A stretch of DNA of 64,000 bases from Candidatus Dojkabacteria bacterium (GCA_018056375.1 JAGPFQ010000002.1:11344-75343), one strand, 5' to 3'; shown: positions 5,414 through 51,202, numbered from the stretch's first letter. Notes: generated from the letters alone by a model not told the origin. Translations and numbers: made by a program.

Positions 5414-5436
5414 GGTATAAAGACTTAGTGTTTGAG

Positions 5437-31124: not shown

Positions 31125-32668
<1,544 letters not shown>

Positions 32669-32752: not shown

Positions 32753-32829
32753 GGGCGCATAGCTCAGCTGGCTAGAGCGCAGTCCTGATAAGACTGAGGT
32801 CCCAAGTTCGATTCTTGGTGCGCCCACCA
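32753..32829 (+). tRNA. tRNA-Ile (anticodon GAT), 3' CCA encoded
   Basis: gggcgca...ctGATaa...tgcgcccaCCA has a 7-bp acceptor stem and a T-arm aagttcgattctt. Confidence 0.9.
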
Positions 32830-32840
32830 GAATGGATGCT

Positions 32841-32914
32841 GGGCCTGTAGTTCAGTTGGCTAGAACGCTTCATTTGCAATGAAGAGGTCAGGAGTTCGAC
32901 TCTCCTCAGGTCCA
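32841..32914 (+). tRNA. tRNA-Ala (anticodon TGC) with the G3:U70 identity pair, CCA not encoded
   Basis: gggcctg...tTGCaa...caggtcca is the sequence. The G3:T70 wobble pair sits in the acceptor stem. Confidence 0.9.
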
Positions 32915-33662: not shown

Positions 33663-33706
<44 letters not shown>

Positions 33707-35211
33707 ACTGAAACCATATGCTTACAAACAGTCGTAGCTGGTATATCCAGTGGCGGCGTGCCTATTGAAGAATGACCCAGTGAGTTCGTTGTGTGTGGCA
33801 AGGTTAACCATGTTTATTGGGGAGCCGAAGCGAAAGCGAGTCCGAATAGGGCACCTTGAGTCACATGCACGAGACCCGAAACCAGGTGATCCAGCCATGA
33901 GCAGAGTGAAGTTCTGAGAAATCAGGATGGAGGCTCGAACTCGTTAATGTTACAAAATTATGAGATGACTTGTGGCTAGCGGTAACATGCCAAACGAACC
34001 TGGTAATAGCTGGTTCTCCCCGAAATAGCTTTAGGGCTAGCGTTGTGATTTAAGATGTGGGGGTAGAGCACTGATTGAATTTGGGACCCGAAAGGGTACC
34101 CACTTCAGTCAAACTCCGAATACCATATTGAACATCACAGCAGTTAGAGCTAGGGATCTAAGTTCCTATGCTCGAGAGGGAAACAGCCCAGATCGTCAGA
34201 TAAGGACCCTAAATTTTACCTTAGTGGGAAAGGAAGTGAAATTTCTCAGACAGTTAGGAGGTTGGCTTAGAGGCAGCCATCCTTTAAAAAATGCGTAAAA
34301 GCTTACTAATCAAGAGATTTTGCACTTAAAATTAACGGGGCTGAAGGTAAATTCCGAAGCTGCGAATTTATACATACTTCGGTATGTATGGGTGGTAGGG
34401 GAGCGTTCTATACATGACCGACTTAGCAGTCGGTAATTAGCTGCGAAGGTGGCCCGTAAGGAGTTGCTGGAGCGTATAGAAGTGAGAATGCTGGGATGAG
34501 TAACGTAAAGCAGGTGAAAACCCTGCTCGCTGAATGTCTAAGGTTTCCATGGCTATGTCAGTCAACCATGGGTTAGTCGGTCCTAAGGAGAGGCTGAAAA
34601 GCGTATCCGATGGATAACAGGTTAATATTCCTGTACTACTGATATTTGAAATGGAGTATGAGGATTGAAGATGCAGGCCCCTTATTGGTTTGGGGTGTAA
34701 GCAACAAGAGAGCTCTTCTAGGAAAATCCGGAAGAGTGTTTCCACCTCGGTGGATGAACGCGAGTTGTGATACAAAGGTGACCTTCGGGAAGCCGATTTG
34801 TAGTACTTAATTCTCCAGGAAAAACTTCTATCTTTAACTACTTCGGTAGTTAATAAAGTATTAGTAACCGTACTGCAATCCGACACCGGTAGACTGGTGT
34901 AAAAGCACCAAGGCGTACGAGTTATGCGTTGTTAAGGAATTCGGCAAATTGACCCCGTAAGTTCGCAAGAAGGGGGACTCTACATCATAAGTTTTTTATT
35001 TGTGGTGATTAGAGTGGCACAGAATAGGGAAGAACGACTAGTTACCAAAACTACAGGCGCTTGCAAACTCGTAAGAGGATGTATAAGTGCTGACACCTGC
35101 CCAATGCCAGAAGGTTAAGATAATTTGTTAGCTCTCTGCTGGGTGCACTTCGGTGCCCTAGTGGTTGCGAAGCAAAGAGTCGAAGCCCTGGTCAATGGCG
35201 GCTGTAACTAT

Positions 35212-35982
35212 TAGACCTGGTGGGGTAGCAATACCCTGCCAGGAATTGTAGTTGTAAAATTTGGCTATATGCTGGAACGTCTGAGTATTTCTTGCTACTC
35301 ATTAGATGATATTCAAATTGTAAGAAATTTGTAATCTCTAGTAGTTAAAATGTAAGAATGCAGATAATCAGCAGGAAAGATTTGTAATGTCAGATCCTAT
35401 TTTTACAGAACAATTGAAATGGTTTCTCTCTGGATTTATCGATGGAGAGGGAAGCTTTTGTCTTAATATTAAGAGTAGAAAGGACTCTAGGTATGGTTTG
35501 AGAATAGAGCCAGCTTTTTATGTTTATCAACATGAAAAAAGTGTCCATATACTTGAATTGTTAAGAAAGATGTTTGGATGTGGAAGTATCCATAGAAAAA
35601 CATCACCGTATAGCGTTTTTACGTATCAGATTTCTGGTATAAAACCTTGCTATACCAAAGTTATTCCTTTCTTTGAGAAGTATCCGTTAATCGTAAAGTC
35701 TCAGACTTTTGAAATTTTCAAAAGAGCTGTTGATTTTATGTATAAAAAGCGACATCTAACTAAGGAAGGTTTTCTTTACTTAGTGGATTTAGCATATGAG
35801 ATAAACCAACAAGGGAAAGGTAAAAAATGGGATAAAGAGACAATAATTACAAAAATCCTCAGAGACTATACGCCAAACTCCTGATAGGGAGATGAGATAG
35901 TCCGACCTGTATGGCGACATACAGATGTATATAGAAATATATACACGAATCTAACAAACGTTGTTAGAGGGTAACACAAGTG
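35212..35982 (+). mobile_element. Group I intron at the 23S position equivalent to E. coli L1917. It carries a LAGLIDADG homing endonuclease ORF
   Basis: The upstream exon ends in U (gtaactaT). The intron ends in G (caagtG). A P7-like element gagatagtccgacc at about 35893 resembles the group I S element AAGATATAGTCC. The ORF lies upstream of P7. Confidence 0.6.
35387..35884 (+). CDS. LAGLIDADG-family homing endonuclease (single-motif type) encoded within the 23S group I intron
   Basis: LSGFIDGEGSF is a LAGLIDADG motif. The ORF is embedded in an rRNA intron. Confidence 0.85.
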   Translation: MSDPIFTEQLKWFLSGFIDGEGSFCLNIKSRKDSRYGLRIEPAFYVYQHEKSVHILELLRKMFGCGSIHRKTSPYSVFTYQISGIKPCYTKVIPFFEKYPLIVKSQTFEIFKRAVDFMYKKRHLTKEGFLYLVDLAYEINQQGKGKKWDKETIITKILRDYTPNS

Positions 35983-35988
35983 AACGGT

Positions 35989-36304
35989 GGTAGATATATA
36001 TCTACTGAGATATTTGCTAATCTCGGTTTGCTATCTAAAGATATAGGGCCGTTTTAAAATCTAGCTATATGCTGGAACATCCTAAACGATACAAGTACCA
36101 AAGAGTAACAATCTTGTATTTATGGACAATCAGCAGGAAAGATCCAAGAAATTGGAAATCCTCAGAGGCTACATGCTAGACACAATATAATATTGTGAAG
36201 ATATAGTCCGACCTCTACAGTGATGTAGAGAGATACACGAAGGTGTATCCGCCTAAAAATAGGTCTTCTAGTTTAATGAACACTAGATGGAAGTAACAGA
36301 AATG
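35989..36304 (+). mobile_element. Second, ORF-less group I intron at the position equivalent to L1923. A 6-nt exon (aacggt, 35983-35988) separates it from the first intron
   Basis: The S-element gaagatatagtccgacc lies at about 36203. The intron ends in G (gaaatG). It shares the elements gctatatgctggaac and aatcagcaggaaagat with intron 1. Confidence 0.5.
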
Positions 36305-36873
36305 CCTAAGGTAGCGTAATACCTTGTCACTTAATTAGTGACTTGCATGAAAGGTGTAACGATTTTTCCTCTGTCTCGACAACGTGCTCGGTGAAATTGA
36401 AATGGCTGTGAAGATGCGGCCTACCTATACCAGGACAAAAAGACCCCGTGGAGCTTTACTTCAGCTTTGCATTGAGATAAGGTCTCGGATGTATAGAATA
36501 TGTGGGAGACTATGAAGCAGTTTCGTCAGGAATTGCGGAGTCGACAGTGTAATACCACTCTTTTGATATTTTATTTCTAACAGTATCCATTATCTGGATT
36601 CTAGACAGTGCATGGTGGGAAGTTTGACTGGGGCGGTTGCTTGCTAAAGAGTACCGCAAGCGCACTAAGGTCTCCTCAACCCGGATGGAAATCGGGTGAA
36701 GAGTGCATAAGCATAAGGAGGCTTTACTGTGAGAGGGACACCTCGATCAGTTACGAAAGTAGGTTTAAGTGACCCTTTGGTTGCGCGTGGAAGCGCCATT
36801 GTTTAACGGAGATAAGCTACCCCGGGGATAACAGGCTAGTCTTGCCCGATAGTTCATATTGACGGCAAGGTTC

Positions 36874-36905
<32 letters not shown>

Positions 36906-36938
36906 ATTGGATAAGATCCCAAGGGTTGGACTGTTCGT

Positions 36939-36969
<31 letters not shown>

Positions 36970-37404
36970 CCGGCGTAAGCCAGGTCGGTCTCTATCCGGT
37001 ATAGGCGTTGTATATTTGAGAGAATCGTCCCCTAGTACGAAAGGATCGGGGAGTGGTAACCTCTGGTCTACCAGCTGTTCTACCAAGAGCATGGCTGGGT
37101 AGCTAAGTTATTATCGGATAAGCACTGAAAGCATATAAGTGCGAAGCCAATCTCAAGATTAAATATACTTGTGTAGCTTGACTACATGGGAGGTCTGTGG
37201 AAGACTACCACATTGATAGGCTCTAAGTGTGAGTATAGTGATATACTTAGCTGAGGAGTACTAATTGACCAAAAGCTTCTTTGATTATCCATTACTTTCT
37301 GTTCGGTTTTGAGTGTACAATGTACACCAATCGCTCTTTAGAATTAAGTCCTGAACTTTTCGTAAGAAGAGGTCAGGCAAGAGGTATTTAAATATAGATT
37401 CCTT

Positions 37405-37523
37405 TTGCCTGGCGATTGTAGTGGAGTGGAACTACCTGACTCCATCCCGAACTCAGAAGTAAAACACTCTAACGCCGAAAATACTTAAACCGCGAGGTTT
37501 TGGAAAGATAGGTTATTGCCAGG
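37405..37523 (+). rRNA. rrf: 5S ribosomal RNA
   Basis: ttgcctggcg...cctgactccatcccgaactcagaag...ttgccaggac matches the 5S consensus architecture. Confidence 0.8.
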
Positions 37524-37537
37524 ACTTTTTGAATATG

Positions 37538-37566: not shown

Positions 37567-39537
37567 TTAAAGAAAAAACCATTCAGGTTTGACAGCTGTA
37601 GCTAATGTGATGAGTGGTAATTCACCTCCTTTCTTTGTTGGGACTGTAATTAGTTCATTTGCGACTAACAGGTCTCCTAAAACTCTGGACTCTCTTCCAA
37701 GTAGGGCATTTTCTTGTGTAGCAATATTACGATACCAACCACGTCCAAGAGTGAAGAAAATTTTGTCAGGAAATCCTCTAGAGATTGCCTTACACAATAT
37801 CTCTGTTTCTGCTTTTGTTTTGTTTGGTCTATATCCCAATCTCTTTATCTGTGAAATGAGCTGTGAATAATTTTGTCTTATCTCTCTTAATGCATTGTAT
37901 GATACATAATTTTCTCTACACCATCTGTAGTTAAAATTATTCTTCTCGGCTGCTTCATACACACTTAATAGGTTTAATAAGTCTGATGAGTTTGATTGTC
38001 CTAAGCTTTTGTGAGCAGCATCTGCTATTTCTACTTCATCCTTTGGTTTGTACAAGAGAGGTCTGCTTGTTCTGATTGCCGCAATAATAGCCATTTCTGT
38101 ACTACACCCCATTTCACAACCAGCTAGAATCATTGTCCCTTCTCTTGGGTCACAAGAAAGTTCTGCTAATTGTTGTCCAAACTCCGAAAGTCTTCTTTCA
38201 TCATTATGATCTAGAGCACCTAGTAAGCGTAATTGATTCTTAGCAGCTTTCCAATTCCCTTTCTCTGGGGAATCGATGAGTCGTATAGGATCTTCTTCTC
38301 TTGAATAACCCATTGCCTTAATCTGTAAGACAACCTCTCTTAAGGATGTTCTGAGAATCTCAGGTTTAGTTGAATTGGGACGGTTATCATAATCATCTTT
38401 TGTAATTAGGTAATAACATTCTCCCGGCTGTGTTCTTCCTGCACGCCCTTTTCTTTGACGTAAAGAATCTTTAGCTGTATGTGTTGTCGCTAATTTCGTT
38501 GTGTCAGCATTGGGGTCATACTCGATAGATTTTGCTAAACCAGAGTCAATAACATATTTAACACCATCTATTGTCAGTCCTCTTTCTGCCACATTTGTTG
38601 ATACAATAATCTTTCTGCTGTTGGGTGATTTCTGAAAAACCTTTTGTCGTTCTTCAGACTGTAACTGGCTGTGTAAGGGGAGTATTGTTGCCCCTAAAAT
38701 CCCCTGTTTTTGCATCTCCTCAATAGTTTGCCTAATTTCATTCTTACCTGGCATGAAAATCAGTATGTCTCCCTCAGGTGTATTTTGATGAATAGAAGAA
38801 GCTACTTTTGCAGCTTCCCTTGGCATTTGGCTTTGTGGTATGCGCACATCGGAGAAATGTTCTTGCACAGGATAGGGACGTCCTTTTGCTTCTATAATTG
38901 GTGCACCACCAAAGTGTTCTGAAAACTTTTGTGCATTAAGAGTTGCAGACATTAAAAGGAATTTGACTTTAGAATCTTGCTCTTGGGCTTTTTCCACAAG
39001 TGCCAATCCGATATCTGAAAGTAGATATCTTTCATCAAATTCGTCAAATATGACAACAGATGTGTCTTGAAGTTTAGGGTCAGATCTAATAATGTTTTTA
39101 AATACACCACTTGTCATAAAGACAATTTCCGAGTCTAGGGAAGATTTCTTTTCTGGACCTGTGATATATCCGACAGTTGTTCCTACCTCTGTTCCCATTT
39201 CTTGGGCTACTCTTTTTGCTGTTTCGACCGTTACTGCCACACGGTTCTCTACTACATAAATCTTCTTATTGTCTTGGGTAAAACCTGCTTGCCATAAGGC
39301 TTGTGGTACTTGTGTGGTTTTACCACTTCCTGTTTCAGAAACCAAAATTAGTTTATTATCATTCTTTAGAGTTTCCACAATTTCTGGCATTCTCTCCCAT
39401 ATTGGAAGAGAATGGTTTCCAATAGGTTCTGTGTCTTGTGGTAAAATTTCTATATCATTTTGTGACACATCTTCTGACACACTTGGCATATCAGGGGATG
39501 ATGTTGTAATTTCGTTTGTTGGTATGTCTTCTGGCAT
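37567..39537 (-). CDS. DEAH-box ATP-dependent RNA helicase, HrpA/HrpB-like (short form)
   Basis: Motif I is LVSETGSGKTTQVPQ. Motif II is IFDEFDER (DEFD variant of DEAH). Motif III is SATL. Motif VI is TNVAERGLTIDGVKYVIDSG. The C-terminal region is HA2-like. Confidence 0.8.
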   Translation of the reverse strand: MPEDIPTNEITTSSPDMPSVSEDVSQNDIEILPQDTEPIGNHSLPIWERMPEIVETLKNDNKLILVSETGSGKTTQVPQALWQAGFTQDNKKIYVVENRVAVTVETAKRVAQEMGTEVGTTVGYITGPEKKSSLDSEIVFMTSGVFKNIIRSDPKLQDTSVVIFDEFDERYLLSDIGLALVEKAQEQDSKVKFLLMSATLNAQKFSEHFGGAPIIEAKGRPYPVQEHFSDVRIPQSQMPREAAKVASSIHQNTPEGDILIFMPGKNEIRQTIEEMQKQGILGATILPLHSQLQSEERQKVFQKSPNSRKIIVSTNVAERGLTIDGVKYVIDSGLAKSIEYDPNADTTKLATTHTAKDSLRQRKGRAGRTQPGECYYLITKDDYDNRPNSTKPEILRTSLREVVLQIKAMGYSREEDPIRLIDSPEKGNWKAAKNQLRLLGALDHNDERRLSEFGQQLAELSCDPREGTMILAGCEMGCSTEMAIIAAIRTSRPLLYKPKDEVEIADAAHKSLGQSNSSDLLNLLSVYEAAEKNNFNYRWCRENYVSYNALREIRQNYSQLISQIKRLGYRPNKTKAETEILCKAISRGFPDKIFFTLGRGWYRNIATQENALLGRESRVLGDLLVANELITVPTKKGGELPLITLATAVKPEWFFL

Positions 39538-39847
39538 TTTTTATATTAGCAGTTTTATATATAATTACATTGTACTTTATCTTTTTTACTTTTTCTACCT
39601 TTAGGGTAGATACACCATTGCATATTGTCCTATAGTATGATATAATATAAGTAGATATCTAATATCTTAGTATGTTAGATATTACTGCTCATTAACAACA
39701 AAGGATTATATATCTCCATATATATCTGTTTTACATTTCAATATGCTGTATTTTGTTCTAAATATTGTATTTAGAATAGTATTCAGCATATGCTGGGATT
39801 AAAACAAATAAATAATAATTCCCTAGTAGGGGAGAAGGAGATTAAAA

Positions 39848-40333
39848 ATGGCTGACACCAATAACTTAAATGACTTCCTTAATTATAAGGAAGTGAAAAG
39901 CGCAAATGGATTGCAGGAGATGCTGGCAATCCACTCTGACCTCTGGGAGCTCAGAGATCAATTTCGTTCTGCTCAAGGAGTAGAACGAGTAAAATGTGCT
40001 GTGAAAATAGCACATAAGCTGCACCAAGGAGAGTACACCTATAAAGTGTACAAAGATGTATTTCCCTACACGAGTGTAGGACTCAATACTTATTACTCAA
40101 TTTGTCAATTCAGCTCTTTGGAGCTAATTGTTACTGCAATTGAAGAAGGTATTCAGTACTTGGTAATTTATGCCAAGAGAGAAAGCTTCTTTGAAGAAGC
40201 TGAGTACGAGGAGTATATAAAACTATCCCGTGTATATTGGGATACTGCAAGTCCGTATTATGTCGAATCCTCTTCTTGCATAACTCCTCTTTCAGAGGAA
40301 GAAATGGAGGAATTGCTCCTCTCTATCGAATAA
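39848..40333 (+). CDS. Hypothetical protein (161 aa)
   Basis: It is a clean ORF followed by a strong terminator. No domain was recognised. Confidence 0.4.
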   Translation: MADTNNLNDFLNYKEVKSANGLQEMLAIHSDLWELRDQFRSAQGVERVKCAVKIAHKLHQGEYTYKVYKDVFPYTSVGLNTYYSICQFSSLELIVTAIEEGIQYLVIYAKRESFFEEAEYEEYIKLSRVYWDTASPYYVESSSCITPLSEEEMEELLLSIE

Positions 40334-40350
40334 TAATCCTTTAGTTGTAA

Positions 40351-40398
40351 AGGGACCCCTGTATTGATATACAGTATAAAGGGTCCCTCTTTCTTTTT
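40351..40398 (+). terminator. Rho-independent terminator with a nested hairpin (agggaccc ... gggtccct, inner ctgtat/atacag) followed by ctttcttttt
   Basis: An 8-bp GC-rich stem, a T-rich tail and the inner palindrome were read directly from the sequence. Confidence 0.55.
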
Positions 40399-40467
40399 AA
40401 AAGAGAATCTTTTGACTTTCTTAATACAAAAATATACACTAAAAGTAGTAAATTAAGAAATAATTGT

Positions 40468-41781
40468 ATGGATGATGATTCTATAACATATCCAAATCTT
40501 ACTGATAATTCCACAATAGATGATTCTGTTCAATCATCACAAGAGGAAATGTCTACAAAGGTTGAGAAAAAGGAAATAGGGAATAGTCTCAAAGTTATTA
40601 TTGCAGGTCCACCTCATTCGGGTAAATCAATAGCAGAGAACTATTTAAGAGGTCTTTTACCAGTAGAAGACACCATGAGGATAGCCGCACAACCTGATGG
40701 TGAAGGAGATTGGACACAAAAGCTTTATGAACAAAATCCTGAATTAGCAAGAGAGCTTCGAGCGAAAGGTTCTTTTACAAGAGAGAATGTTGATAAATGG
40801 AAATCTCAAATTCGAAATACAGACAGTAGATTTGCATTAATAGATGTTGGAGGGGTTGTAAGCCCTGAAAATGAAGAAATATGTAATGAAGCGAATGCAA
40901 TGATAATAGTTTCCTCTGATGAAACTAAAAATGCTGAATGGGTAGATTTAGCAAATAGGACAGGTTTAAATATTCTTGCTGTATTACACTCAACCTTGGA
41001 ACCAAGACAAGAGTGGTTTGTTAAAACACCAAATAAAGAGTGGGAAAATGAGGGGCTAGTTGTAGGTTTGGATAGGGGGAAGTTTAAAGAATCACAAACA
41101 TTACGAAGTCTTGCATCATATATGTTGGAAAAGGTTCCTGAGAGAGTGGAACAAGAGAGTATGGAATATGAGAGGATAGGTGTTGAAGATATTGCGGAAA
41201 TGATAGGGAAGAAGGAAGAAGAAATTATTCTACCAGGTAGAGAACCTATTAAAGGTTTGAACTGGAAACCAGAAGAATTAAAGGAAGTATATATCAGATT
41301 ACAAGGTTTGTCAGAAAAAGGAGGAAGTTTCTTGGTAGATGGGAGAGCACCACAGTGGTTAGTAGTAAATATTGTACATGCTATGCATCCCAACAGGGTT
41401 GCTTTAGCGGATAGTAAGGTTGAAGGTGGGGCTGTTGGAATTTCAGGCTTGAATACCCCAGATGGCGAAGGTAGTGGTCCTCTACCGTTTCAGAAAACAG
41501 AAGGTTTTCATGGTGGTACATTGGTTCAGTATGCCAAAGGTGAGTTTATAATTGTTGATAACCAAAGGATGAATGAAGTGATTCCTCCTGCTGTAGCTGA
41601 AGGGAAACCTGTCTTCTTGAGTGGTAAAACTGCAAACTGGGCTGTGGCCGAGATAGCAATGTCCTATGCTCATATTGTTCCAGCAGTTTATCTATATCAA
41701 CCAGGAGTAGGTTTTGTTTGTGCAATTACACATAGTACAGAGCATGAATTAGGATCTGTTATAAAAGAGAATCCTGTGTAA
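40468..41781 (+). CDS. P-loop NTPase of unknown family (Walker A GPPHSGKS, Walker B-like FALIDVGG) fused to an unrecognised C-terminal domain of about 250 aa. The compositionally G-richer gene has a possible Clp1/polynucleotide-kinase-like P-loop
   Basis: KVIIAGPPHSGKSIAENYL resembles the GPxxxGKS-type P-loops of Clp1/Grc3 and nucleotide kinases. The remainder (…VDGRAPQWLVVNIVHAMHPNR…FQKTEGFHGGTLVQYAKGEF…) matches nothing I can name. Confidence 0.45.
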   Translation: MDDDSITYPNLTDNSTIDDSVQSSQEEMSTKVEKKEIGNSLKVIIAGPPHSGKSIAENYLRGLLPVEDTMRIAAQPDGEGDWTQKLYEQNPELARELRAKGSFTRENVDKWKSQIRNTDSRFALIDVGGVVSPENEEICNEANAMIIVSSDETKNAEWVDLANRTGLNILAVLHSTLEPRQEWFVKTPNKEWENEGLVVGLDRGKFKESQTLRSLASYMLEKVPERVEQESMEYERIGVEDIAEMIGKKEEEIILPGREPIKGLNWKPEELKEVYIRLQGLSEKGGSFLVDGRAPQWLVVNIVHAMHPNRVALADSKVEGGAVGISGLNTPDGEGSGPLPFQKTEGFHGGTLVQYAKGEFIIVDNQRMNEVIPPAVAEGKPVFLSGKTANWAVAEIAMSYAHIVPAVYLYQPGVGFVCAITHSTEHELGSVIKENPV

Positions 41782-41975
41782 ACCTACCAAGGTCTGGCTT
41801 AGGTCAGACCTGCTACTAGTGATTGGCTTTTGCCTTTCTATTGCGGTTTCCTAGCCCTCGGCATGTTGCAAAAGCAGCGAATTGGATTATGGTAAAAACT
41901 GTGTTTGTGGGGTCGAACATATGGGTTTGATCGCTAGGATGAGGAAAAAACATGAGGAACAAGGTTAGACCTAGG

Positions 41976-42713
41976 TCAGACCTTATGCATAAGCTCTAGC
42001 GTTTCCTCTGGGTTTTTGACAATGTTAATATGTATATCCTTAAGAGATAGGAGTGGGTAATCATTGCCGTATACTTCAAACTCATCTCCTGTGAAGACCA
42101 CATCCTTTAGAGGGACATCTAACATCTTTGCTAGTCTGACCGTATTATCTGCCTTGTTACCTCCCTTGGCTATAACATCAACGGAGGCTCTTCCTGCTAC
42201 AAATGTTTCAAACCTTCCCTGTAACATCTCATCAAGTCCTTTCTTTATCGCTAACCTTTTAGTCCCCTTAGGGTTCCACACCTCTTTTTCTTCATCTGAA
42301 ACATCATCTCCTAAGCAATCTATTACAATATACCCTTCTTTTTCCTTAACCTCTCCTCTTCCTGTTCCCTCAAGAGCTCTTAGAGCTTCGCAAACGATCT
42401 GCTTGTCTCCCTGTGTCATTACTTCTGCTTCATAGACCAAATTGAGCCTTTCAGCACTCCAATTGTAAATCTTGTTTCCATATGAAGGACAGATGAAGAG
42501 GTTCTTGAGATTGTCTCTGTTTAAGATAGAAATTTTATCAACGAAAAGTCTCTTTAGTGGCTCAAAGGTCCTCCCACTCATTACTGCGACATAATTCTTT
42601 TCAAGGAGTCTTGTGATTTCATAGAGGACTTCGTCTGATGGAACAGATACAGGTTTGGCTAGGGTGTTGTCGTAGTCAAAGATTAATAATTTTTTCATAA
42701 TCAAGTATATCAA
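41976..42713 (-). CDS. HAD-IIB (Cof-type) phosphatase
   Basis: Motif I is FDYDNTL and motif IV is GDEFEVYGNDYPL. A cap domain is inserted between motifs I and II. Confidence 0.7.
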   Translation of the reverse strand: MIYLIMKKLLIFDYDNTLAKPVSVPSDEVLYEITRLLEKNYVAVMSGRTFEPLKRLFVDKISILNRDNLKNLFICPSYGNKIYNWSAERLNLVYEAEVMTQGDKQIVCEALRALEGTGRGEVKEKEGYIVIDCLGDDVSDEEKEVWNPKGTKRLAIKKGLDEMLQGRFETFVAGRASVDVIAKGGNKADNTVRLAKMLDVPLKDVVFTGDEFEVYGNDYPLLSLKDIHINIVKNPEETLELMHKV

Positions 42714-43067
42714 AGAAAGAAGTGTAATGGGTAAAACCTAGAGAAAAAGTTCTAGGGTTTAAGATTGGGGTGTGGTAGTAGAGTGAATAATTTGTTTGAT
42801 GTTTTTCAGGTGTTACAAAACATTCCTTTGTCTGGTTGTGTAAAAGGTGGGTTGTTTTCTAAAATGTAACATTAGGTGTTTAGGTTGTTGAAAATGAGTG
42901 TTCTGTGATGTGGGAATATTTTTGGATGTCCATCAAGTGACAGGGATTGGAGTGAGTAGGGTGTTTGCAGAGTACTTTAGTTCTGGTGTAAAATATTTGA
43001 ACAAAAATAGGGGTGGGTGGGAGTGTGGTATAATAAAAATACATAAATTTACATTTTTCTCTTAAAA

Positions 43068-44078
43068 ATGGAAATTGAAAGCTATGGGTCGGTATGCGTT
43101 GAGGGTGGGGATCAGCTAGGAAAGGGTGATGCGACTTCTAGGATTGTTAGTGAGCTTGAAGCAGATGGTGTGAATCTTACCTTCTCATCTTTTCCAATAT
43201 ATGCTACTCCAATAGGTTCTGTCATTCGTTCTCTCCTGAAGAATGGTATCTCGGATGCGGACTTAAATGGAGTAGATAGCTTAGAAACGAGAATGGCGCT
43301 TTTTGCATTGAACAGGTTAGAGTTTTTGGATGTATATATGAGTGATAGGAAGTATAGGGATACAATGTTGATTTGTGATAGGAGTCCGTTTAGTAATGCA
43401 GTAACGATAGGGTATGGGCTTTCTTTACAGGGGGATTGGGATGGGCAACAAGTAAGGAAATATGTTGATAGGGCAATGGATTTTGACTCTCTGATGATAT
43501 CGAAGTTGGGGTTAGGTAGGTGTGTTGTTCAATTGATATCAGAAGAGGATGAATGGAGGGATATTAGAACAGTAGAGACAGATCAGTATGAGAAGAGGGA
43601 TGTGCAGGAGAATTGTGCCAAGGTGTACGAAGTGTACAAAGATATTGTAGGTCCTGGGTGGCATCAGGTTGTTACTAAGAGTGATGATGGGTGGAGAAGT
43701 AGAGATGATATTTGGTTGGATGTTGAGGAAATTCTTCATCTGTCGTATGGAGATATAGGGGATATCAGGCAAGGGTTAAGGTATGATATTGGTTTTAAGG
43801 AGATTGTTGAGAATATGTATCCTAAAGCTACATATGACAAGAAAGTGTGTCATATGTATGATAGTGCAATTAAAGAGAATATTAAAGATATTATGTATAC
43901 AAGTGGCTTGGAGTTAGGGCAACAGGTGGCAGATAGTTGTATGAATATTAGGTTTTCCAATGAAGGGGTGAGGAAAGAGTTTGAAAGGATATTGGTTGAA
44001 ACTCCAGGTACTATGAAAGTATTTGAACATTTTCTAGGTAGGGGATTCGTAAACAAATTAAAGAGAGCTTTGATTTAA
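43068..44078 (+). CDS. dNMP/deoxynucleoside-kinase-like protein with a degenerate P-loop (EGGDQLGKGD) and a C-terminal extension of about 130 aa
   Basis: VCVEGGDQLGKGDATS compares with the thymidylate kinase P-loop EGxDGxGKxT. LICDRSPFSNAV compares with the TMK/dNK DR(Y/S) motif. An extended -10 (tgGtataat) lies upstream at about 43025. The stop overlaps the next gene's start (taATGa). Confidence 0.45.
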   Translation: MEIESYGSVCVEGGDQLGKGDATSRIVSELEADGVNLTFSSFPIYATPIGSVIRSLLKNGISDADLNGVDSLETRMALFALNRLEFLDVYMSDRKYRDTMLICDRSPFSNAVTIGYGLSLQGDWDGQQVRKYVDRAMDFDSLMISKLGLGRCVVQLISEEDEWRDIRTVETDQYEKRDVQENCAKVYEVYKDIVGPGWHQVVTKSDDGWRSRDDIWLDVEEILHLSYGDIGDIRQGLRYDIGFKEIVENMYPKATYDKKVCHMYDSAIKENIKDIMYTSGLELGQQVADSCMNIRFSNEGVRKEFERILVETPGTMKVFEHFLGRGFVNKLKRALI

Positions 44079-44701
44079 TGAAAAAGAAAGAATTAGCAGT
44101 TCAATTACTATCTGAAGTTGAAAAACTCTTCCCAGAGGCGACTACAGAGCTTGTAAATTGGAGAGATGATTTTCAATTTTTAGTTGCAGTTATTCTCTCG
44201 GCACAGACAACAGACATTCAGGTGAACAAGATTACCCCAGAACTTTTTAGAAAATATCCAGATGCTAAAAAATTGGCAAGTGCAAAAATAGAGGATTTGG
44301 AATATACCCTAGGGGGTATCAACTATTTTAGAACTAAATCTAAAAATATTAAAAAGATGGCTAAAATTCTGGTAGAGCAATATGAAGGTCAGCCTCCTAA
44401 ATCGCTCAAGAAGCTCATTGAACTACCGGGTGTAGGTTACAAGACTGCAAATGTTTTTCTTAATGAAAGGTATAGGGCTAATGAGGGTATTGCTGTTGAT
44501 ACACATGTTTTGAGAGTTGCTAGAGCATATGGTCTGACTAAGAATACAGATCCCACTAAGGTAGCCCACGATTTGGAGAAACTCTATCCTAAGAAAGATT
44601 GGTACAAGGTTAATTCAGCATTTGTTCTGTATGGTAGATATATCCTAAAAGCTAGGAAGCCAGATATGGATAGGGTTGTGTTAAAAGAGTATCTAGTTTG
44701 A
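44078..44701 (+). CDS. HhH-GPD DNA glycosylase (endonuclease III-like) lacking the C-terminal 4Fe-4S cysteine cluster
   Basis: FLVAVILSAQTTD and the HhH motif LPGVGYKTANV are present. The C-terminus has no C-X6-C-X2-C-X5-C, as in MagIII-type enzymes. Confidence 0.75.
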   Translation: MKKKELAVQLLSEVEKLFPEATTELVNWRDDFQFLVAVILSAQTTDIQVNKITPELFRKYPDAKKLASAKIEDLEYTLGGINYFRTKSKNIKKMAKILVEQYEGQPPKSLKKLIELPGVGYKTANVFLNERYRANEGIAVDTHVLRVARAYGLTKNTDPTKVAHDLEKLYPKKDWYKVNSAFVLYGRYILKARKPDMDRVVLKEYLV

Positions 44702-44785
44702 GATAGATTTAATCTTCAGTTCATTTTTGGTGGGTATAATAATTATAATTTCTATTTGACATAGATGTCGCATATATGAGACAAT

Positions 44786-45088
44786 GTGAATATTATGAAA
44801 AAAGAGAAAATCATGACTTTCGAAGAATTCGAAAAGAGGAATTTTACAGAAGAAGAATTAAAGATAATACATAAGAGGGCTCAGAAGAGGATTGCATTAA
44901 GGAAGTTAAGAGAGGCTAGGGAGAGTATGGGAATATCTCAGTACGAACTTTCTGTTAAGTCTGGTATTCCAAGGAGTGCAATTAGTGAGATTGAGAGTGG
45001 TAGGAGGAATGTGTCTGTTGCGAAGTTGAATAAGTTGGCAGATGCATTGAATACGGATTTGAAGATTGATTTTGTAAAGAGGAAATAA
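44786..45088 (+). CDS. XRE-family HTH transcriptional regulator with the HTH in the C-terminal half (HigA-like topology)
   Basis: The HTH_3 region is MGISQYELSVKSGIPRSAISEIESGRRNVSVAKLNKLADAL. The gene ends 6 nt from the stop of the convergent giant surface-protein gene. Confidence 0.7.
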   Translation: MNIMKKEKIMTFEEFEKRNFTEEELKIIHKRAQKRIALRKLREARESMGISQYELSVKSGIPRSAISEIESGRRNVSVAKLNKLADALNTDLKIDFVKRK

Positions 45089-45094
45089 CGAAGA

Positions 45095-48000
45095 TTATTT
45101 CTTTTCTACCTGTTTTCTCTTGTATATGTTATATCCTAAGAGTATTGTTAATAGGACAATTAGGGCAATCAACCAGTAAACGTATGTTGGTATTATTACT
45201 TTTTCTACTTTGACATTTATCTCCATCTCTTCTGCTCCATCGCTGATTAGATTAATTTTCTTTTCAGCCCTATACCCATTATATGAAATAACCATTGTAT
45301 GTAAACCTGTTTCTAGATTTTCAAAATATACTTCTCCATTTTCATCAGTAATTCCTGTTCTAACATCCGAGTGTATTTCAACAGTAACACCTACAAGAGG
45401 TTCTCCAGACTCATTGTATACCTTTATTTTTAGACTCTTAGATTGAGTAGGAGGAGTAGGTTCTTTAGTTATATCAACAGTTTCTTCTTCAGCTTTAGTG
45501 TCTTCTTCCTGTTCAGTTTCGATAATGGGATTGATGTATTTAGTAAAAGGATTCTTTGGTTTTACAATAGGTTTTGGGTCTAGAGGAGTAGGGATAATTG
45601 GTTTTGGAGGTTCTTCTTCCTCTTCCTCAGGTTGTTCTGGTTCTTCTTCCTCTTCTACAATATATGTCACAGAGTTATCAGTAGAGGTAGATGCTACGTT
45701 TGTATTTCCAGCTAAATCAGTTAATACATCAGCAGGAATAGTTGCCGTTACTGTTTCACCATTTGTTAGGTTCTCAATCTCAACTTCATACTCTGTTTCA
45801 CTAATTTTTGTTATACTTTTGACTTGAGCAGTAGTACTTCCTGAGATTAGTATGTCTTCATTAGTAAAAGTATCTTCTTTGATTGGTTTTGAGAAGATAA
45901 CCGTGTATTTAATGGAGTTAATATCTGTTGGGTCTGTTTGAGTAGAGGATTGATTAATAGTTACAGAGGGTGGAGTATTATCATATGTAATAGAGTTGTC
46001 AATACTGGTTGATGCAATATTTTTGTTTCCAGCAAGGTCTTCCACAGTATCAACAGGTAGGATGAGTGAAACTGTTTCTCCTGATACCATACCATTTACA
46101 TATGCTGTGTATGTTGTGTTATTGACATTTGTTAATAGTAATACTTTAGCTGTACTACTACCCAATATTTCTAAATCATCTCTTGTAAATGTATCTTCAT
46201 TTATTGGTTCAGAGAAGATTATTGTAAATTTAATTATATCTTCATTTGTAGGATCAGCTTGATCATCAGCTTGGTTTACTGTAACTGTTGGAGAAGTAGC
46301 ATCATATGTTACTGAATTGTCAGTAGAAGTTGAGGCAGTATTGGTGTTTCCAGCAGAATCTTCAACTCTGTTAGCCGGTAGGAAGAGTGATACAGTTTCC
46401 CCAGATACCATACCCGTTACAACTGCAGTATATGTAGTGCTATTTACTGTTTGTAATTGTGATATTGTCGCTGTACTACTACCTGATATGAGTAGGTCTT
46501 CTTTTACAAAAGTATCTCCATTTATTGGTTTGGAGAAGACAACTGTATATTTAATGGAGTTTATATTGGTAGGGTCTACTTGGTCATCAGCTTGATTTAC
46601 TGTAACAGTTGGTTTCTCTTTATCGAATGTAACAGTACTGGATTCTATCTCAGCAGTATTCCAGTTACCAAGAACATCTTGGTATGTATGAGCAGGGGAG
46701 AATACTGTTATACTTGCCTTTTGGTTCACTATGCCTGACACAGAGAGAGCATATTTCTTATTATTTATACTTGTTACTTCTGTAACCTTTGCTGTAGTAA
46801 CAACACCGTCTTCCTTAATCTTAAAACTATTTGCATCTAAGGTATCATCTTTCAGAGGTTCAGAGAAAGTTACATGGAAGATAATAGGTTGTTGATTAGT
46901 TGGATTTGGTTGTCCAGTAGCTGGTACAATTGAAGTAATGTATGGAGGTGTAATATCAATTATTAGTTGACCCGTGATTTCACTACTGTTTTGAGCAGTA
47001 TCCGTAGCAGTTATTGTTAAATTGTATGTTTTTGTTGTTAGGTTTGTAATGTCTCCAGCAGATACAGTCCAAGTACCATTTTGATTGTTTGTTGCATTGA
47101 TTATCTGTCCAGTTTCTACAATCACTACTTGTACAGTAGCATTTTTATCATTAACAGTACCTGTAAGTTCAGGGGAGGGGTTATTTGTACTTAAATCTTC
47201 ATATCCTACTACTGGAGCGATGGTGTCTTTCAATAGCTCTTTGGTGTCTTCTCCTTTGTTTCCAACATCGTCCGTCTGTGATGCATAGACAACGACAGTA
47301 CCATCGGGTTGTGCTGATAGGTCTAGTTCTGTGCTCCAAGTGTCATCACTTTGACATTCTGCTACATATGGTTGTTCTGCTATAACTGTAATGATATTGT
47401 TGTCTCCAAAAGTACATGTACCCCCTAGGGTGTAGTGGGTTCTGTTTGCTCTGTTAATTGGTGCTGTGCTGGTTATGGAAATTGCTGGTGGGATTCTGTC
47501 TATGATATATCCTTCTTTGGTTTCAGTAATACTGTTTCCTGCTTGGTCCTTGGCTGTTATAGCAAGGTTCCCTGATTCTATGATTGTTATTGTACAATTA
47601 ATAATATTTTTATCTCCAGTATCAGCAGTACATTCCAAATTCTCAGCCATTCCTGTTGAACTTGCAGCTATCTCAATATCTGCAGGATATATTTCAACAG
47701 CATCTGTTACAGTAATTGTAGTATCTGTAATATTATCCTTTTTCTTCTTGGTAGGAGCATTGATAGTAATAACAGGGTCAACAGTATCAATCGTATACAT
47801 GTGTGAGTTGTATCCAGTTGCTCCATTATTAGTATCCTCTGCTTGTATTATAATTGTTCCACTTTTATTAATATTTCTAATATTACAAGTTACGTATGTA
47901 GTATATGGAGCATTATGTTCTCCATCTGCATCTGCACAATTTTCAAGAGTAACACCCTCGGATGCTGTTCCAGAGATTGCAATGTTATCAATTTCGTGTC

Positions 48001-51000
48001 CTGCGATAGGGGCAGTAATTGTTACAGTTGAATTGTTAATGGGTTGGTTACTAAGGATAGTAGGGGCATTGAATACGACTTCTGGAGGGAAAATGGTTTG
48101 CTTTTCAGTAGTATTGCCCACTAAGTCGTAGGCGATAACTGTAATTGTGTGTTGATCTTCTCCTGCGTAAAGTTCAAGAGTTCTTTGTATAACACCAGGT
48201 TTTGTATACTCTATTTCATCAACTTTGTTTAATCCATCACTTCCAACATATTTAATCTCATACTTTAACATTCCTACAGCATCAGTAGCTTCAAATTCAA
48301 TAATTGGTTTATCTATACCATGTGTTAAAGTATCAATACTTGATGTAATAAAGGTTGGGGGAACTTGGTCAACAACATATCCATCTTTGAAGGCAGTAGA
48401 GCTTAACCCAGCATTATCAGTAGCCTTCAAAACTAATCTACCAGAAGTTTTTATACGAATAGTACAATTCATTTCTATATGATTCTCTGGATCGGGTGGA
48501 TCAGCTTCATATGGGAAGGGTGGAGTACATACAATATTATCCGCAGTAGCTATACTGGACTCATCTACTTCTACAGAAGCGATAGAGAAACGATCGCTTA
48601 CTTTAAATGTAGTATCAGTGATAGGGGCATTGGACATAGTAGTTCCTTGATTAATAGTAATTTCTGGAGGTAAATCATCAACATCAAGTACAGTGATAAC
48701 GAAGATTTCTTCGGTATATAAATTAGTTGAGTCGGTGGCTCTTACTCTAATTGTATATTTATTTTTATCATCAGGGTCAGCTGTTCCTGTTGGATTTTCA
48801 TAGTCTGGAGGTTCTAGGAAAGCTAAAGCACCAGTAGTAGGATTAAGAGCAAACTTAGAGTTATCTCCACTTCCTTCACCAGATACAAGAGAGTAGATTA
48901 CTGCACCCTCAGCTTCAGATGTAATAGTGCCTACTTCTGTTTTGTTTTCTTCGATTTCATCAGGAGATAGGCTGAGGTTCTGAGGAGGACATTTCTTACC
49001 AGCATCATTTATAGTCCATTTGCTCGGATCTCCCATTAAAGCTGTTCTTGCATCTTCTGCATAGCAGTAGTTTACTCCTACTGCATCAAAGGTTCGACTT
49101 GGTTTTACAGTTTGTACACTCCATGCATTTAGCAAACTATCATAATTATCTATTTGCATGTTAGAAGCATTTAAGAATTGATTAAAGTATTCAACCTTAC
49201 TAATATTCCAACTAGATATATCTTGATTAAATTGGGCAGCACGATCAAACATACGCGTCATATTTGTAACATTTGCTGTATTCCAACTATCACCAAACGG
49301 TTGATTAAACTGATAAGCATAATTAAACATAGCTGCCATACTTTTAACCTGAGTAGTATTCCAGTTTAAGGGCTTACTCTCATCACCAGGTTCTGCACCA
49401 TTATTAAAAACATTGGCATTTTGAAACATGAATGCCATATTTTCAACCTTTGCTGTATTCCAATCACCAATATATTGATTAAAACTTCTAGCTTGTCTAA
49501 ACATATCTGACATGTTCCTGACATTTGCTGTAGTCCATTTAGGGCCAAACGGTTGATTAAAGTCTCTTGCCACAAACATGGCATACATAGTATCAACCTT
49601 TGATGTATCCCAATTTAATGGATTACTACTACCACCTGCAACATCACCGTTATTAAAAACAGTAGCCCCATTAAACATATGCATCATACTGGTAACTTTT
49701 TTAGTATCCCAGTTATTAAGATTTTGGTTAAAGGAACTAGCACTCATGAACATGCCGAACGTACTAGTTATATTGCTAGTATTCCAAGAACCAATATTTT
49801 GGTTAAATGCTTTAGCGTTTAGAAACATGTATGTTACATACTGGAGACTTTTAGTGTCCCAATTCATGGTGTTGCTACTTTCACCTGGTGCTTCACCGTT
49901 ATTGAAAACGGTTGCACCTTGAAACATGTTAGACATATTAGTAACCACACCAGTATCCCAACCACCAATATATTGATTAAATGCACTAGCATCTCGAAAC
50001 ATAAGAGACATGCTTTCAACCTTTGTTGTAACCCAATTCATAGTATTTTGACTTTCACCTGGTGCATCACCATTATTAAAGGCTGTGGCTTGTCTAAACA
50101 TGTTAGACATATTAGTAACCGCACCAGTATTCCAACTACCGATGTTTTGATTGAAAACTGAGGCCTGATTAAACATTGAGCCCATATTAATAACCTCACT
50201 GGTATTCCACCCACCAATATCCTGATTGAATACAGTAGCTCCGGCAAACATACCGTACATATCTCTTACAAGTCCAGTCTGCCAACCACTAATATCTTGA
50301 TTAAAGGAATAAGCTTTGTTAAACATTTGCTTGAAGTTAAAGGCTTTACTCGTATTCCATTCTAAAGGCTTAGTGCTTTCACCTGGTGCCTCTCCATTAT
50401 TAAAATTGGTAGCTTCGAAGAACATAAGGGACATATTACCAACTTCGCCAGTTTTCCATTTACCGATGTATTGATTAAAATTTGTAGCACCACCAAACAT
50501 TGAGTTCATTGCAGTCACTGCACTTGTATCCCAATTACCTATGGGGGCATTAAAGTTACTGGCTCCACTAAATGTAGCAGCCATATTTTTAACACCACTA
50601 GTATTCCAACTATCCATAGAGTCATTACCAGTAAAGTTTGTAGCTCCTTGAAAAGCAGAAGACATATCTGTAACTTGTGATAAATCAGGGATATCAGTAG
50701 CAGTTAGTTGCATATTAACCATGTCCTTAAAGGCAGACATGAAGCTTGACCATGGGATAGTACCCCATTGTTTAATCTCTAATAGTTTAGCTTTTTCATC
50801 GGTAGCTAAATCAGGGGAATAGAAACGGAGTGGGGCAGTAGATCTAACGCAAACATCGTATGTACCTGGTGTCGGATAATTATGTGTAGCTAAGCTAGTG
50901 TAAAACAGTTCATAATCATCATCACAATTCCAAGATACTTCATAAGTATCGGTAGCTACTTTCAAAAATCTTAAAGTGACTTTATTTGGTTCAGTTGCTC

Positions 51001-51169: not shown

Positions 51170-51202
51170 AACCTCAATTTTGTAGCATACTCACTTTATC
51201 TA

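Follow-up and report, generated by a model that had tools for sequence, protein, structure and literature searches.

The stretch described here, positions 39848–44701 of a 64-kb window (the whole piece of DNA that was read from this genome), carries genes for a 437-residue protein with an N-terminal P-loop nucleoside triphosphatase (NTPase) domain and two tandem Csx3/Crn3 domains (the Csx3-fusion protein), a HAD-IIB phosphatase, a long thymidylate kinase-like protein and endonuclease III (Nth). The nearest homologues retrieved in the searches carry the name Candidatus Dojkabacteria, a lineage of Patescibacteria (candidate phyla radiation, CPR), and the gene order was identical in three independent assemblies of the species. 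At each other locus used for comparison, 8–21 kb were read. An earlier note, made from the DNA sequence alone, had described the stretch as a G-richer island whose genes form a nucleic-acid or nucleotide processing module of horizontal origin. The open reading frames (ORFs) that it reported were all present at the same positions (Table 1). In our judgment, the stretch is probably not one imported island. It would consist of three separate adjacent units, namely unit A (a DEAH helicase gene, lying just outside the boundaries drawn in that note, a small species-specific ORF, and the Csx3-fusion gene), unit B (the HAD phosphatase gene), and unit C (the kinase and nth genes), all within the syntenic core of a Dojkabacteria chromosome directly after the rRNA operon. 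The component proteins are of known kinds. Two arrangements appear to be unreported: a CRISPR-free Csx3-NTPase with a helicase neighborhood, and an obligate pairing of a long thymidylate kinase (Tmk) with an Nth that lacks the iron-sulfur cluster. Literature searches returned nothing on Csx3 in Patescibacteria, on a Tmk-Nth link, or on cluster-less Nth in CPR bacteria.

Table 1. Features of the stretch and its immediate surroundings, in window positions; residue numbers refer to the respective protein.
Feature	Position	Strand	Evidence or remarks
Csx3-fusion gene, 437 aa: P-loop NTPase and two tandem Csx3/Crn3 domains ("AAA-Csx3", C3a67 family)	40468–41781	+	PADLOC, Pfam, AlphaFold2 (AF2)
Predicted SIMIBI-type (GTPase-like) P-loop domain (N-domain), aa 38–232, then a short linker	40579–41163	+	GPPHSGKS, PDGEGxW, R98/K100, D126-x-G-G
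Csx3-like domain 1, aa 283–355	41314–41532	+	Alone: Pfam Cas_csx3 E 1.8e-4, 21.7 bits versus cut-off 21
Csx3-like domain 2, aa 363–433	41554–41766	+	Fold intact; phmmer alignment to 6yud
Thymidylate-kinase-fold domain, aa 1–235 of 336-aa protein	43068–43772 (full gene to 44078)	+	P-loop EGGDQLGKGD
Helical C-terminal domain (tail) of the kinase, aa 236–336, ~100 aa	43773–44075	+	Invariant Y251, N271, K273
Endonuclease III (Nth), HhH-GPD, 207 aa	44078–44701	+	TIGR01083 213.6 bits versus cut-off 211.7
HAD-IIB (Cof/S6PP-like) phosphatase, 240–245 aa	41976–42713	-	TIGR01484 52.9 bits versus cut-off 41.8; Pfam S6PP, Hydrolase_3
Control region common to the HAD gene and the kinase-nth operon	42714–43067		Alignment of 18 orthologous spacers
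DEAH/RHA (HrpA/HrpB-like) SF2 helicase, 656 aa	37567–39537	-	Motif II DEFDE; divergent from the Csx3-fusion gene
ORF161, 161 aa	39848–40333	+	Between helicase and Csx3-fusion gene; GC at third codon positions (GC3) 0.389
Convergent spacer, Csx3-fusion gene/HAD gene	41788–41983		Two 24-nt palindromic hairpins at its ends
rRNA operon, complete	31118–37524		Upstream of the stretch, helicase between
XRE/HTH_3 regulator, 91–100 aa	44786–45088	+	Pfam HTH_3 E 1.1e-16

Domain structure and residue conservation of the Csx3-fusion protein

The 437-residue protein, which the earlier note had found unrecognizable, belongs to a described family. The PADLOC C3a67 "AAA-Csx3" profile (PDLC01059) matched residues 43–432 with an E value of 4.5e-34 over profile positions 7–377 of 382, Pfam Cas_csx3 matched with an E value of 1.5e-12, and NCBIfam also returned Crn3/Csx3. 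The searches yielded 86 homologues, with relatives in 309 species-level genomes. The domain layout was taken from an alignment of 45 homologues together with the AF2 model, which had a predicted local distance difference test score (pLDDT) of 88.

The Walker motifs recognized previously were confirmed at residues 47–54 (GPPHSGKS) and 124–129 (LIDVGG). The motifs of the N-domain are essentially invariant across Patescibacteria, Clostridia, and Chloroflexota. Its Foldseek matches were SRP54/FtsY, MinD/Soj/FleN, HypB, and Get3, and neither AAA+ proteins nor Clp1. No Pfam family covered the domain, and a profile search of PDB sequences gave no significant relative, with weak GTPase or FtsY matches only. 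The P-loop half aligned with the ATPase portion of the "Csx3-AAA" model from cyanobacteria (PADLOC PDLC01045; E value 8e-39). The N-domain is thus the same domain as the cyanobacterial Csx3-AAA ATPase, and it appears to be GTPase/SIMIBI-like rather than AAA+. The kinase or Clp1-like P-loop proposed earlier was not borne out, as no Clp1_P or PNK family or fold match was obtained with Pfam, NCBIfam, PDB sequences, or Foldseek. An end-healing reading of the Clp1 or polynucleotide kinase-phosphatase (PNKP) type was rejected because of the missing family and fold matches (Pfam, NCBIfam, Foldseek).

The C-terminal part of the protein was superimposed by Foldseek on Csx3 from Archaeoglobus fulgidus (AfCsx3, 6yud) with a template modeling score of 0.83, a root-mean-square deviation of 1.6 Å, and 27% identity. 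In AfCsx3, one dimer face is made up of G45, R46, D69, and R71, and the other has H57, H60, and H80 (PMC7371418). Domain 1 of the Csx3-fusion protein keeps G292, R293, W297, H304, H307, and D315, which correspond to AfCsx3 G45, R46, W50, H57, H60, and D69; it has K317 in place of R71 and lacks an equivalent of H80. In domain 2, M398, A401, Q411, and G413 replace H57, H60, D69, and R71, and H422 (equivalent to H80) is retained. The full residue set H57, H60, H80, D69, and R71 is found in neither single domain. Because domain 1 has no equivalent of H80 and domain 2 alone retains one, each bound ligand could meet no more than one cleavage center, and this center would itself be incomplete.

Across the family, the Csx3 catalytic residues vary by clade, whereas the P-loop motifs are invariant across phyla. 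The domain 1 sequences of cas-linked Chloroflexota keep G45, R46, W50, D69, and R71 in all 23 cases, and the two histidines are not kept. D69 and R71 are lost in most domain 1 sequences of other Patescibacteria. At the D69-P70-R71 site, domain 2 mostly reads Q-P-G (Q in 62 and P in 73 of 79 sequences), and the third position is G except in Chloroflexota, where it is mostly Q. Given the residue pattern of the two domains, the fused pseudo-dimer is intrinsically asymmetric. What is conserved as the core of the protein is the NTPase rather than the nuclease site.

Genomic context of the Csx3-fusion family

Neighboring genes were clustered in 80 Csx3-fusion loci, recurrent clusters were annotated, and context was counted at loci of at least 8 kb. 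Linkage to Cas10, RAMP, or CARF(NE0113)-LuxR genes was found at 19 of 21 Chloroflexota loci, at 0 of 28 Patescibacteria loci, and at 0 of 15 Clostridia/Bacillota loci. For Patescibacteria, cas genes were sought by BLAST clustering with the cas proteins of Chloroflexota and by scanning recurrent neighbors with Pfam. The 64-kb window and the 28 Patescibacteria loci yielded no CRISPR array; arrays were detected at four loci outside Patescibacteria (three in Chloroflexota and one in Bacillota). No cas gene was present among those window ORFs of at least 120 aa that do not overlap a longer annotated gene.

The Patescibacteria loci have a different set of recurrent neighbors. At nine of the 28 loci, in addition to the window, a homologous DEAH/RHA helicase is encoded no more than 10 kb away from the Csx3-fusion gene, and an HD_4 hydrolase, a MYG1 exonuclease, and a TrmB regulator recur at 9, 7, and 11 loci, respectively. 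These loci span Dojkabacteria, Moraniibacteriota, Peribacteria, Peregrinibacteria, Saccharibacteria, and unclassified lineages. At L002–L004, RNase J and an enzyme of the CCA-adding or poly(A) polymerase type are encoded next to the gene. In Peribacteria (L026, positions 2795–5686), the NTPase-Csx3-Csx3 arrangement is fused to a further domain of ~500 aa, designated c112, in a 963-residue protein. At two Saccharibacteria loci (L027 and L031), c112 is encoded by a separate gene of ~680 codons located between the Csx3-fusion gene and the gene for a 1120-residue DEAH helicase. No Pfam family matched c112. At the loci read, the large Patescibacteria branch of the AAA-Csx3 family is uncoupled from CRISPR and is linked instead to an RNA helicase, an HD hydrolase, and the MYG1 exonuclease, with the DEAH helicase as the conserved partner of the Csx3-fusion gene.

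The helicase of the window scored 353 bits with TIGR01967 (HrpA) and 349 bits with TIGR01970 (HrpB), under the equivalog cut-off in each case, and matched Pfam DEAD, Helicase_C, and HA2. Its DEFDE sequence, in place of the canonical DE(A/V)HE motif II, is frequent in Csx3-linked helicases (window, L001, L026, L044, and L049).

Other observations were made at individual Csx3-fusion loci. A MoxR-type AAA ATPase and a VWA-domain protein are encoded a few genes downstream at three Patescibacteria loci (L043, L052, and L082), and a gene for a large serine recombinase lies near the Csx3-fusion gene at L047 and L049, directly upstream of it at L049. Two relatives of the protein were found in 2.9 million viral contigs. 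One of them, on a 167-kb IMG/VR contig (L167), is full length with 34% identity, and its gene is 2.3 kb from a thymidylate kinase gene (positions 5189–5704 and 8001–9248). A phage origin was rejected, with two viral relatives only and no PHROGs matches.

The long thymidylate kinase

The presence of a thymidylate-kinase-like protein with a GKGD P-loop and a C-terminal tail, as noted previously, was confirmed by Pfam and Foldseek. The kinase domain scored 34.1 bits with Pfam Thymidylate_kin (cut-off 27), and the NCBIfam equivalog cut-offs were not reached (27.3 versus 83.25 bits for TIGR00041; 32.3 versus 193 bits for NF005923). Its AF2 model had a pLDDT of 91 and a predicted template modeling score of 0.91. 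The top 50 PDB matches in Foldseek were all thymidylate kinases, and the named top viral matches were mainly dTMP kinases.

The P-loop Lys, DR motif, and lid Arg, the residues by which the earlier note had proposed to judge this protein, are retained. Conserved residues in the window kinase are K19, F78, R83, D104-R105, W163, R167, D172, E175, and Q180. In the family alignment, G18, K19, R83, D104, R105, W163, D172, E175, Q180, Y251, N271, and K273 are invariant; E12, D15, Q16, D21, and R167 reach a conservation of 90% or more, and position 78 is conserved as F/Y. When aligned to human thymidylate kinase (TMPK), these residues include what we take to be the P-loop Lys, the Arg that contacts the TMP phosphate, the DR(Y) motif, the base-contacting Gln, and the lid Arg.

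The P-loop reads GK[G/A/N]D in all 72 distinct members of the family, accompanied by DRxx[FY]S[NH], NRLE, and DxxExxxVQ motifs, and Ser and Thr are missing throughout from the two positions that follow the P-loop Lys. Among the closest Tmk relatives, both shorter and longer ones, the first residue past this Lys varies (G, A, N, K, R, H, and others), and Thr or Ser comes next. Several related long Tmk lineages have an acidic residue two positions after the Lys (GKNE and GKGE). Adenylate kinases use GKGT and are functional. Because GK[G/A/N]D is fixed throughout the family, whereas the relatives vary after the Lys and have Thr one position on (GKxT), the motif is best read as a fixed Thr-to-Asp change under selection and not as decay. 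The designation of this protein as degenerate was therefore abandoned.

The tail gave no Pfam match at E ≤ 10, and the Foldseek alignments extended over about the length of the kinase domain, with no match to the tail. The full-length family is small, with ~36 clusters (50% identity, E ≤ 1e-30) among 1.84 billion representatives. No second tmk was present in the window or at the loci surveyed, where tblastn searches with short Tmks found the long kinase only.

Sister long Tmk-like proteins that lack the tail and are not encoded next to nth were observed at three loci. At two of these (L173, positions 2365–5116, and L175, positions 177–8517), the proteins, 351–371 aa in length with P-loops GKNS and GKNT, are encoded near nucleotide-excision repair genes: one gene comes immediately after uvrC, and the other has uvrC and uvrB on either side at distances of 1.5–2.3 kb. 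The third has no repair neighbor. There may be a wider link of long Tmk-like kinases with DNA-repair genes in these bacteria.

Cysteine-free endonuclease III and its coupling to the kinase

The window Nth has the catalytic Lys (GVGYKTA) and the catalytic Asp (VDTH) and contains no cysteine. Because it has none, it is unable to hold a [4Fe-4S] cluster, in agreement with the earlier description of the glycosylase. The Cys-X6-Cys-X2-Cys-X5-Cys motif is missing, and the C-terminal segment is of unchanged length (ARKPDMDRVVLKEYL). All 67 full-length partner Nth proteins have 0–2 cysteines, and both catalytic motifs are present in 66 of them.

The translational coupling of the two genes, which had also been noted, extends far beyond this species. 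The TAA stop codon of the kinase gene and the ATG of nth overlap by 1 nt (TAATG; ttgatttaATGaaa). Among 80 metagenomic loci, with kinase identities of 30%–96%, 75 had at least 130 bp of sequence downstream of the kinase gene, and nth followed directly in all 75; the same holds for L001, L005, and L006. Of 77 kinase-nth junctions, 68 are overlaps (mostly of 4 or 8 nt), eight have the genes 0–3 nt apart, and one is an in-frame fusion encoding a 562-residue kinase-Nth protein (L146, P0204). These data support the kinase gene and nth as a conserved, translationally coupled unit.

The HAD phosphatase and its control region

The HAD-IIB phosphatase, correctly identified in the earlier note as convergent with the Csx3-fusion gene, is divergent from the kinase-nth operon. 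The enzyme is intact, with a DxD-type motif I, DYDNT (FDYDNT, residues 12–17), and GDEFEVYGND (GDxxxxxxND) near the C-terminus. A divergent HAD homologue was found ~345 bp upstream of the kinase gene at 17 of the 52 loci with room for it, and the length of the spacer is nearly constant across loci. In the alignment of the spacers, inverted half sites are conserved 55 bp apart (TGTTAC at 42811–42816 and GTAACA at 42866–42871), as is an extended -10-like element, TGTGGTATAAT, at 43024–43034. These elements are probably an operator for a regulator and a promoter. The spacer of this species contains very little C (C 0.07, G 0.28). An Rfam scan of positions 39400–45200 at E ≤ 1 gave no match, hence no riboswitch in the kinase leader.

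Gene order and base composition

The gene orders in related genomes separate unit A from the genes downstream. In the sister Dojkabacteria genome L006, the order is DUF1846, 16S, 23S, and 5S rRNA, followed by HAD, kinase, and nth, with a gap of 41 bp between the 5S and HAD genes; the helicase and Csx3-fusion genes are both absent. In the relative L001, the helicase and Csx3-fusion genes are followed by other genes and then by kinase and nth, and there is no HAD gene. On the basis of these two orders, the helicase, ORF161, and the Csx3-fusion gene are regarded as one unit that is separable from the downstream genes. Relative to L006, this block is an indel, and its flanks are syntenic across Dojkabacteria. 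The conservation of gene order, which the earlier note had proposed to test, holds for kinase and nth, and the four genes are not one conserved neighborhood.

ORF161 had no match to any Pfam, NCBIfam, PADLOC, or PHROGs family. Among the loci compared, it was seen only in the same-species assemblies (L169, L170, and L172), and L001, the closest relative, does not have it; whether it is a real gene is doubtful. The XRE regulator downstream of nth is likewise confined to the same-species assemblies, with other genes at its place in L001 and L006. It is a neighbor and not a conserved member of either unit.

The reported shift in composition was found in part. GC3 is elevated (0.37–0.41) in ORF161 and in the HAD, kinase, and XRE genes compared to the window (0.278, sd 0.048), and the kinase gene is the sole composition outlier, with the highest G content of the window (0.297). 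On the other hand, the GC content of the genes of the stretch (0.36–0.40) is within ~1.5 sd of the window mean (0.352, sd 0.028), GC3 is not elevated in the Csx3-fusion gene (0.237) or nth (0.298), and the excess of G on the + strand is found throughout the window, with a GC skew of 0.2–0.5 in every + strand gene block. The G-rich run quoted as an example in the earlier note is present, but it lies within the Csx3 coding sequence at 41425–41448 and encodes a glycine-rich stretch. No integrase, tRNA, or flanking direct repeat was found at the borders of the helicase-Csx3 block in repeat and RNA scans of the window, and the block was on these grounds rejected as a mobile element. Because of the near-background GC content, the window-wide skew, and the lack of integrase, tRNA, and flanking repeats, the case for horizontal acquisition is weak; it is further opposed by the synteny of the region between Dojkabacteria genomes.

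A repeat search found the two hairpins of the convergent spacer at 41788–41811 and 41960–41983. They are palindromic, 83% identical, and terminator-like. The possibility that this spacer is a 5S rRNA relic of an insertion was rejected, as the similarity was limited to short end segments and was not significant.

Other genes of the window

The remaining genes of the window are housekeeping genes: ksgA, dnaG, ftsK, rpoBC, rpsL, rpsG, hrcA-grpE-dnaK, murJ, and those for DUF1846, Ham1, S1, and ClpB. A Fic-domain protein (16212–17252, + strand), which matched the PADLOC SoFic defense model with an E value of 2.4e-44, is encoded between rpsG and two tandem HAD_2 hydrolase genes. The 23S rRNA gene (33062–37284) is ~1.3 kb longer than the model and contains a group I intron at 36002–36230 and an ORF for a LAGLIDADG homing endonuclease at 35387–35884; in the sister genome L006, the 23S gene has two group I introns. 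Downstream of the stretch, three consecutive genes at 45095–58491 (- strand) encode giant predicted surface proteins of 2024, 1445, and 971 aa with DUF285, Big, cadherin, and CarboxypepD_reg domains. These genes occupy 13 kb of a genome of ~750 kb, and homologous giants follow nth in sister genomes.

Proposed functions and alternative explanations

The domain identities, family memberships, residue conservation, and gene linkages reported above are the observations from which we infer ligands, activities, and physical complexes. The explanation that fits them jointly, and that we hold to be the likelier one, keeps the three units apart and proposes separate mechanisms for units A and C. In unit A, the Csx3 pseudo-dimer would bind an oligoadenylate-type ligand, either cyclic A4 (cA4) or an RNA 3' end. 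Ligand-driven stacking in a head-to-tail manner, known from the filaments of AfCsx3, would place the P-loop domains side by side and switch on a dimerization-dependent NTPase, which in turn would gate or time the action of the helicase and nuclease partners on RNA, without CRISPR in Patescibacteria. In unit C, the kinase would be an active dTMP (pyrimidine deoxynucleoside monophosphate) kinase, possibly the lineage's own Tmk. It would be made co-translationally and in fixed proportion with Nth, which is probably bound through the kinase tail, and the supply of salvaged thymidylate would thereby be linked to the repair of oxidized pyrimidines. The HAD phosphatase gene of unit B shares the ~350-bp control region with unit C.

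Several points weigh against this explanation. The closest relative (P0003) and the majority of the other Patescibacteria have lost the His-x-x-His and Asp motif of domain 1, so conservation may concern a function other than catalysis by the Csx3 domains. Cas genes of very divergent sequence may have escaped detection at the Patescibacteria loci, and cas genes or another oligoadenylate synthase could be encoded elsewhere in the genome, beyond the 64 kb read. The HAD gene accompanies the kinase-nth pair at only part of the loci (17 of 52). For units A and C, the activities, ligands, and complexes are derived from sequences and models.

An alternative that we consider unlikely is that the Csx3-fusion protein is an ordinary type III CRISPR or cyclic-oligoadenylate accessory that works in trans, sensing or degrading cA4 made by Cas10 or another cyclase elsewhere, with the helicase as an incidental neighbor. 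The full-length C3a67 membership would fit, as would the cas linkage and adjoining CARF-LuxR regulator in Chloroflexota and the H57, H60, and D69 equivalents kept in domain 1, and ring nucleases acting in trans have been discussed (PMC12409355). However, this alternative has to contend with the absence of cas linkage from all Patescibacteria and Clostridia/Bacillota loci and from the window, and with the absence of arrays from Patescibacteria. The cA4-contacting Asp and Arg are missing from domain 2 and from most Patescibacteria domain 1 sequences, and the helicase, HD, and MYG1 links in at least six CPR lineages, together with the c112 fusion, argue for another set of partners. For unit C, it is possible, though we doubt it, that the kinase is a plain housekeeping thymidylate kinase with nth as an operon partner only, without physical or mechanistic coupling, and that the tail serves another purpose. 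All Tmk substrate and catalytic positions are conserved, the gene is single-copy in a syntenic core, no other tmk was seen, and sister long Tmk-like proteins occur in other contexts (uvrC, uvrC/uvrB, or no repair gene). Set against this are the unbroken adjacency of nth down to 30% kinase identity, coding regions that overlap nearly everywhere, the in-frame fusion, a tail that is specific to the Nth-linked family, and partner Nth proteins that are always of the cysteine-free type.

Another possibility, a kinase-like protein without catalytic activity that binds nucleotides or DNA and serves the cluster-less Nth as a regulatory subunit, seems improbable. The missing Ser/Thr after the P-loop Lys and the missed equivalog cut-offs (27–32 versus 83–193 bits) would be expected of it, but K19, R83, D104-R105, R167, and Q180 show little or no variation, a pattern typical of a working active site, and both the acidic residues in related long Tmk lineages and the GKGT of functional adenylate kinases also speak against it. 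Least probable is the proposal that the P-loop protein, phosphatase, kinase-like protein, and glycosylase are one horizontally acquired processing module for salvage, PNKP-style healing, or DNA modification and restriction avoidance; the survey of gene orders has already largely refuted it. In its favor, the genes lie side by side, four small genes have a modestly raised GC3, HAD, kinase, and nth do occur together at 17 of 52 loci, and sister genomes differ in having or lacking the helicase-Csx3 block. To this extent, the linkage seen in the earlier note stands: kinase and nth are conserved together, and HAD is a recurrent divergent neighbor. Nevertheless, the partner of the Csx3-fusion gene is the helicase, and this gene and the kinase-nth pair are each found without the other (L006 versus L002–L004 and 28 other Patescibacteria loci). 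The P-loop protein is no Clp1 or polynucleotide kinase; no ligase, polynucleotide kinase-phosphatase, or DNA-modification enzyme was found in Pfam, NCBIfam, PADLOC, and PHROGs scans; and the kinase and HAD proteins match no PADLOC model. The flanks are syntenic, and the G-richness of the + strand is window-wide.

With separate units A, B, and C as the preferred explanation, a bolder joint proposal can be put forward tentatively. Patescibacteria would possess a CRISPR-independent Csx3 system, in which a pseudo-dimer that senses oligoadenylate or RNA 3' ends switches a dimerization-dependent NTPase working with the DEAH helicase, HD hydrolase, and MYG1, and the long Tmk and cluster-less Nth would form an obligate complex. 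If the former is true, there would be a housekeeping or stress-related RNA surveillance or signaling pathway that is either derived from or ancestral to type III CRISPR signaling. Csx3-ATPase fusions have been listed since 2018, and the N-domain here is the invariant, apparently GTPase-like core of the family. The CRISPR-free Csx3 genes beside RNA helicase and nuclease genes raise the idea that Csx3-type ligand sensing may operate outside CRISPR immunity, and the Patescibacteria protein would be a simple system in which to learn the role of the NTPase. If the latter is true, damaged pyrimidines would be excised in step with the phosphorylation of thymidylate in organisms that depend on nucleotide salvage. 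The kinase-glycosylase pair gives a clean comparative-genomics signal (100% adjacency, overlapping frames, and one fusion) and would tie nucleotide salvage to base-excision repair in bacteria that are unable to make nucleotides de novo. A natural endonuclease III without the iron-sulfur cluster also bears on the long debate over the purpose of this cluster.

Comparison with known systems

The resemblance to end healing by PNKP and Clp1 is limited to the presence of a P-loop protein and a HAD-family phosphatase in the same vicinity. Unlike in those systems, the HAD protein is of type IIB, sugar-phosphatase-like, and neither fused nor consistently linked to the P-loop protein, and there is no ligase.

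The fold of AfCsx3 (Archaeoglobus fulgidus AF_1864; PDB 6YUD, 3WZG) is the same as that of the C-terminal part of the Csx3-fusion protein, and Pfam Cas_csx3 matches both of its C-terminal domains. Csx3/Crn3 ring nucleases are characterized by Mn-dependent cleavage of cA4 by stacked dimers. AfCsx3 is a homodimer, whereas the Csx3-fusion protein combines two fused, non-equivalent copies with an N-terminal NTPase and has no type III CRISPR context. The C3a67 "AAA-Csx3" (Caur_2269 type) and cyanobacterial "Csx3-AAA" (Slr7080 type) proteins were defined as type III CRISPR accessories by Shah et al. 2018 (PMC6546367), and the function of the Csx3-fused ATPase was still unknown in 2025 (PMC12409355). 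The published members of both groups are cas-linked, whereas those of Patescibacteria are found instead with the DEAH helicase, HD_4, MYG1, and TrmB. The N-domain resembles SIMIBI NTPases (SRP54/FtsY, MinD/Soj, HypB, and Get3), its best non-Csx3 structural matches, in having a Walker A motif followed by an hhhD-x-G-G Walker B motif, and by analogy with them we assume hydrolysis that depends on dimerization. Unlike them, it has no significant sequence similarity to the class, no N/TKxD specificity motif was seen, and it has an invariant PDGEGxW motif of its own.

The window kinase shares with TMPK (human, yeast, and Plasmodium; PF02223) the fold, P-loop Lys, base-stacking aromatic residue, NR Arg, DR motif, lid Arg, and Gln. 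It differs in having GK[G/A]D for GK[S/T]T, Y45 for human R45, Q16 for R16, the 100-aa tail, and the coupling to nth. The window Nth and E. coli Nth have in common the equivalog profile, the HhH Lys, and the catalytic Asp. Cluster-free homologues of endonuclease III are known, yeast Ntg1 being an example. In the window Nth, all four cluster cysteines of the E. coli enzyme are replaced, and, unlike in E. coli, the start of its gene is overlapped by, and in one case fused to, a gene of the thymidylate kinase family.

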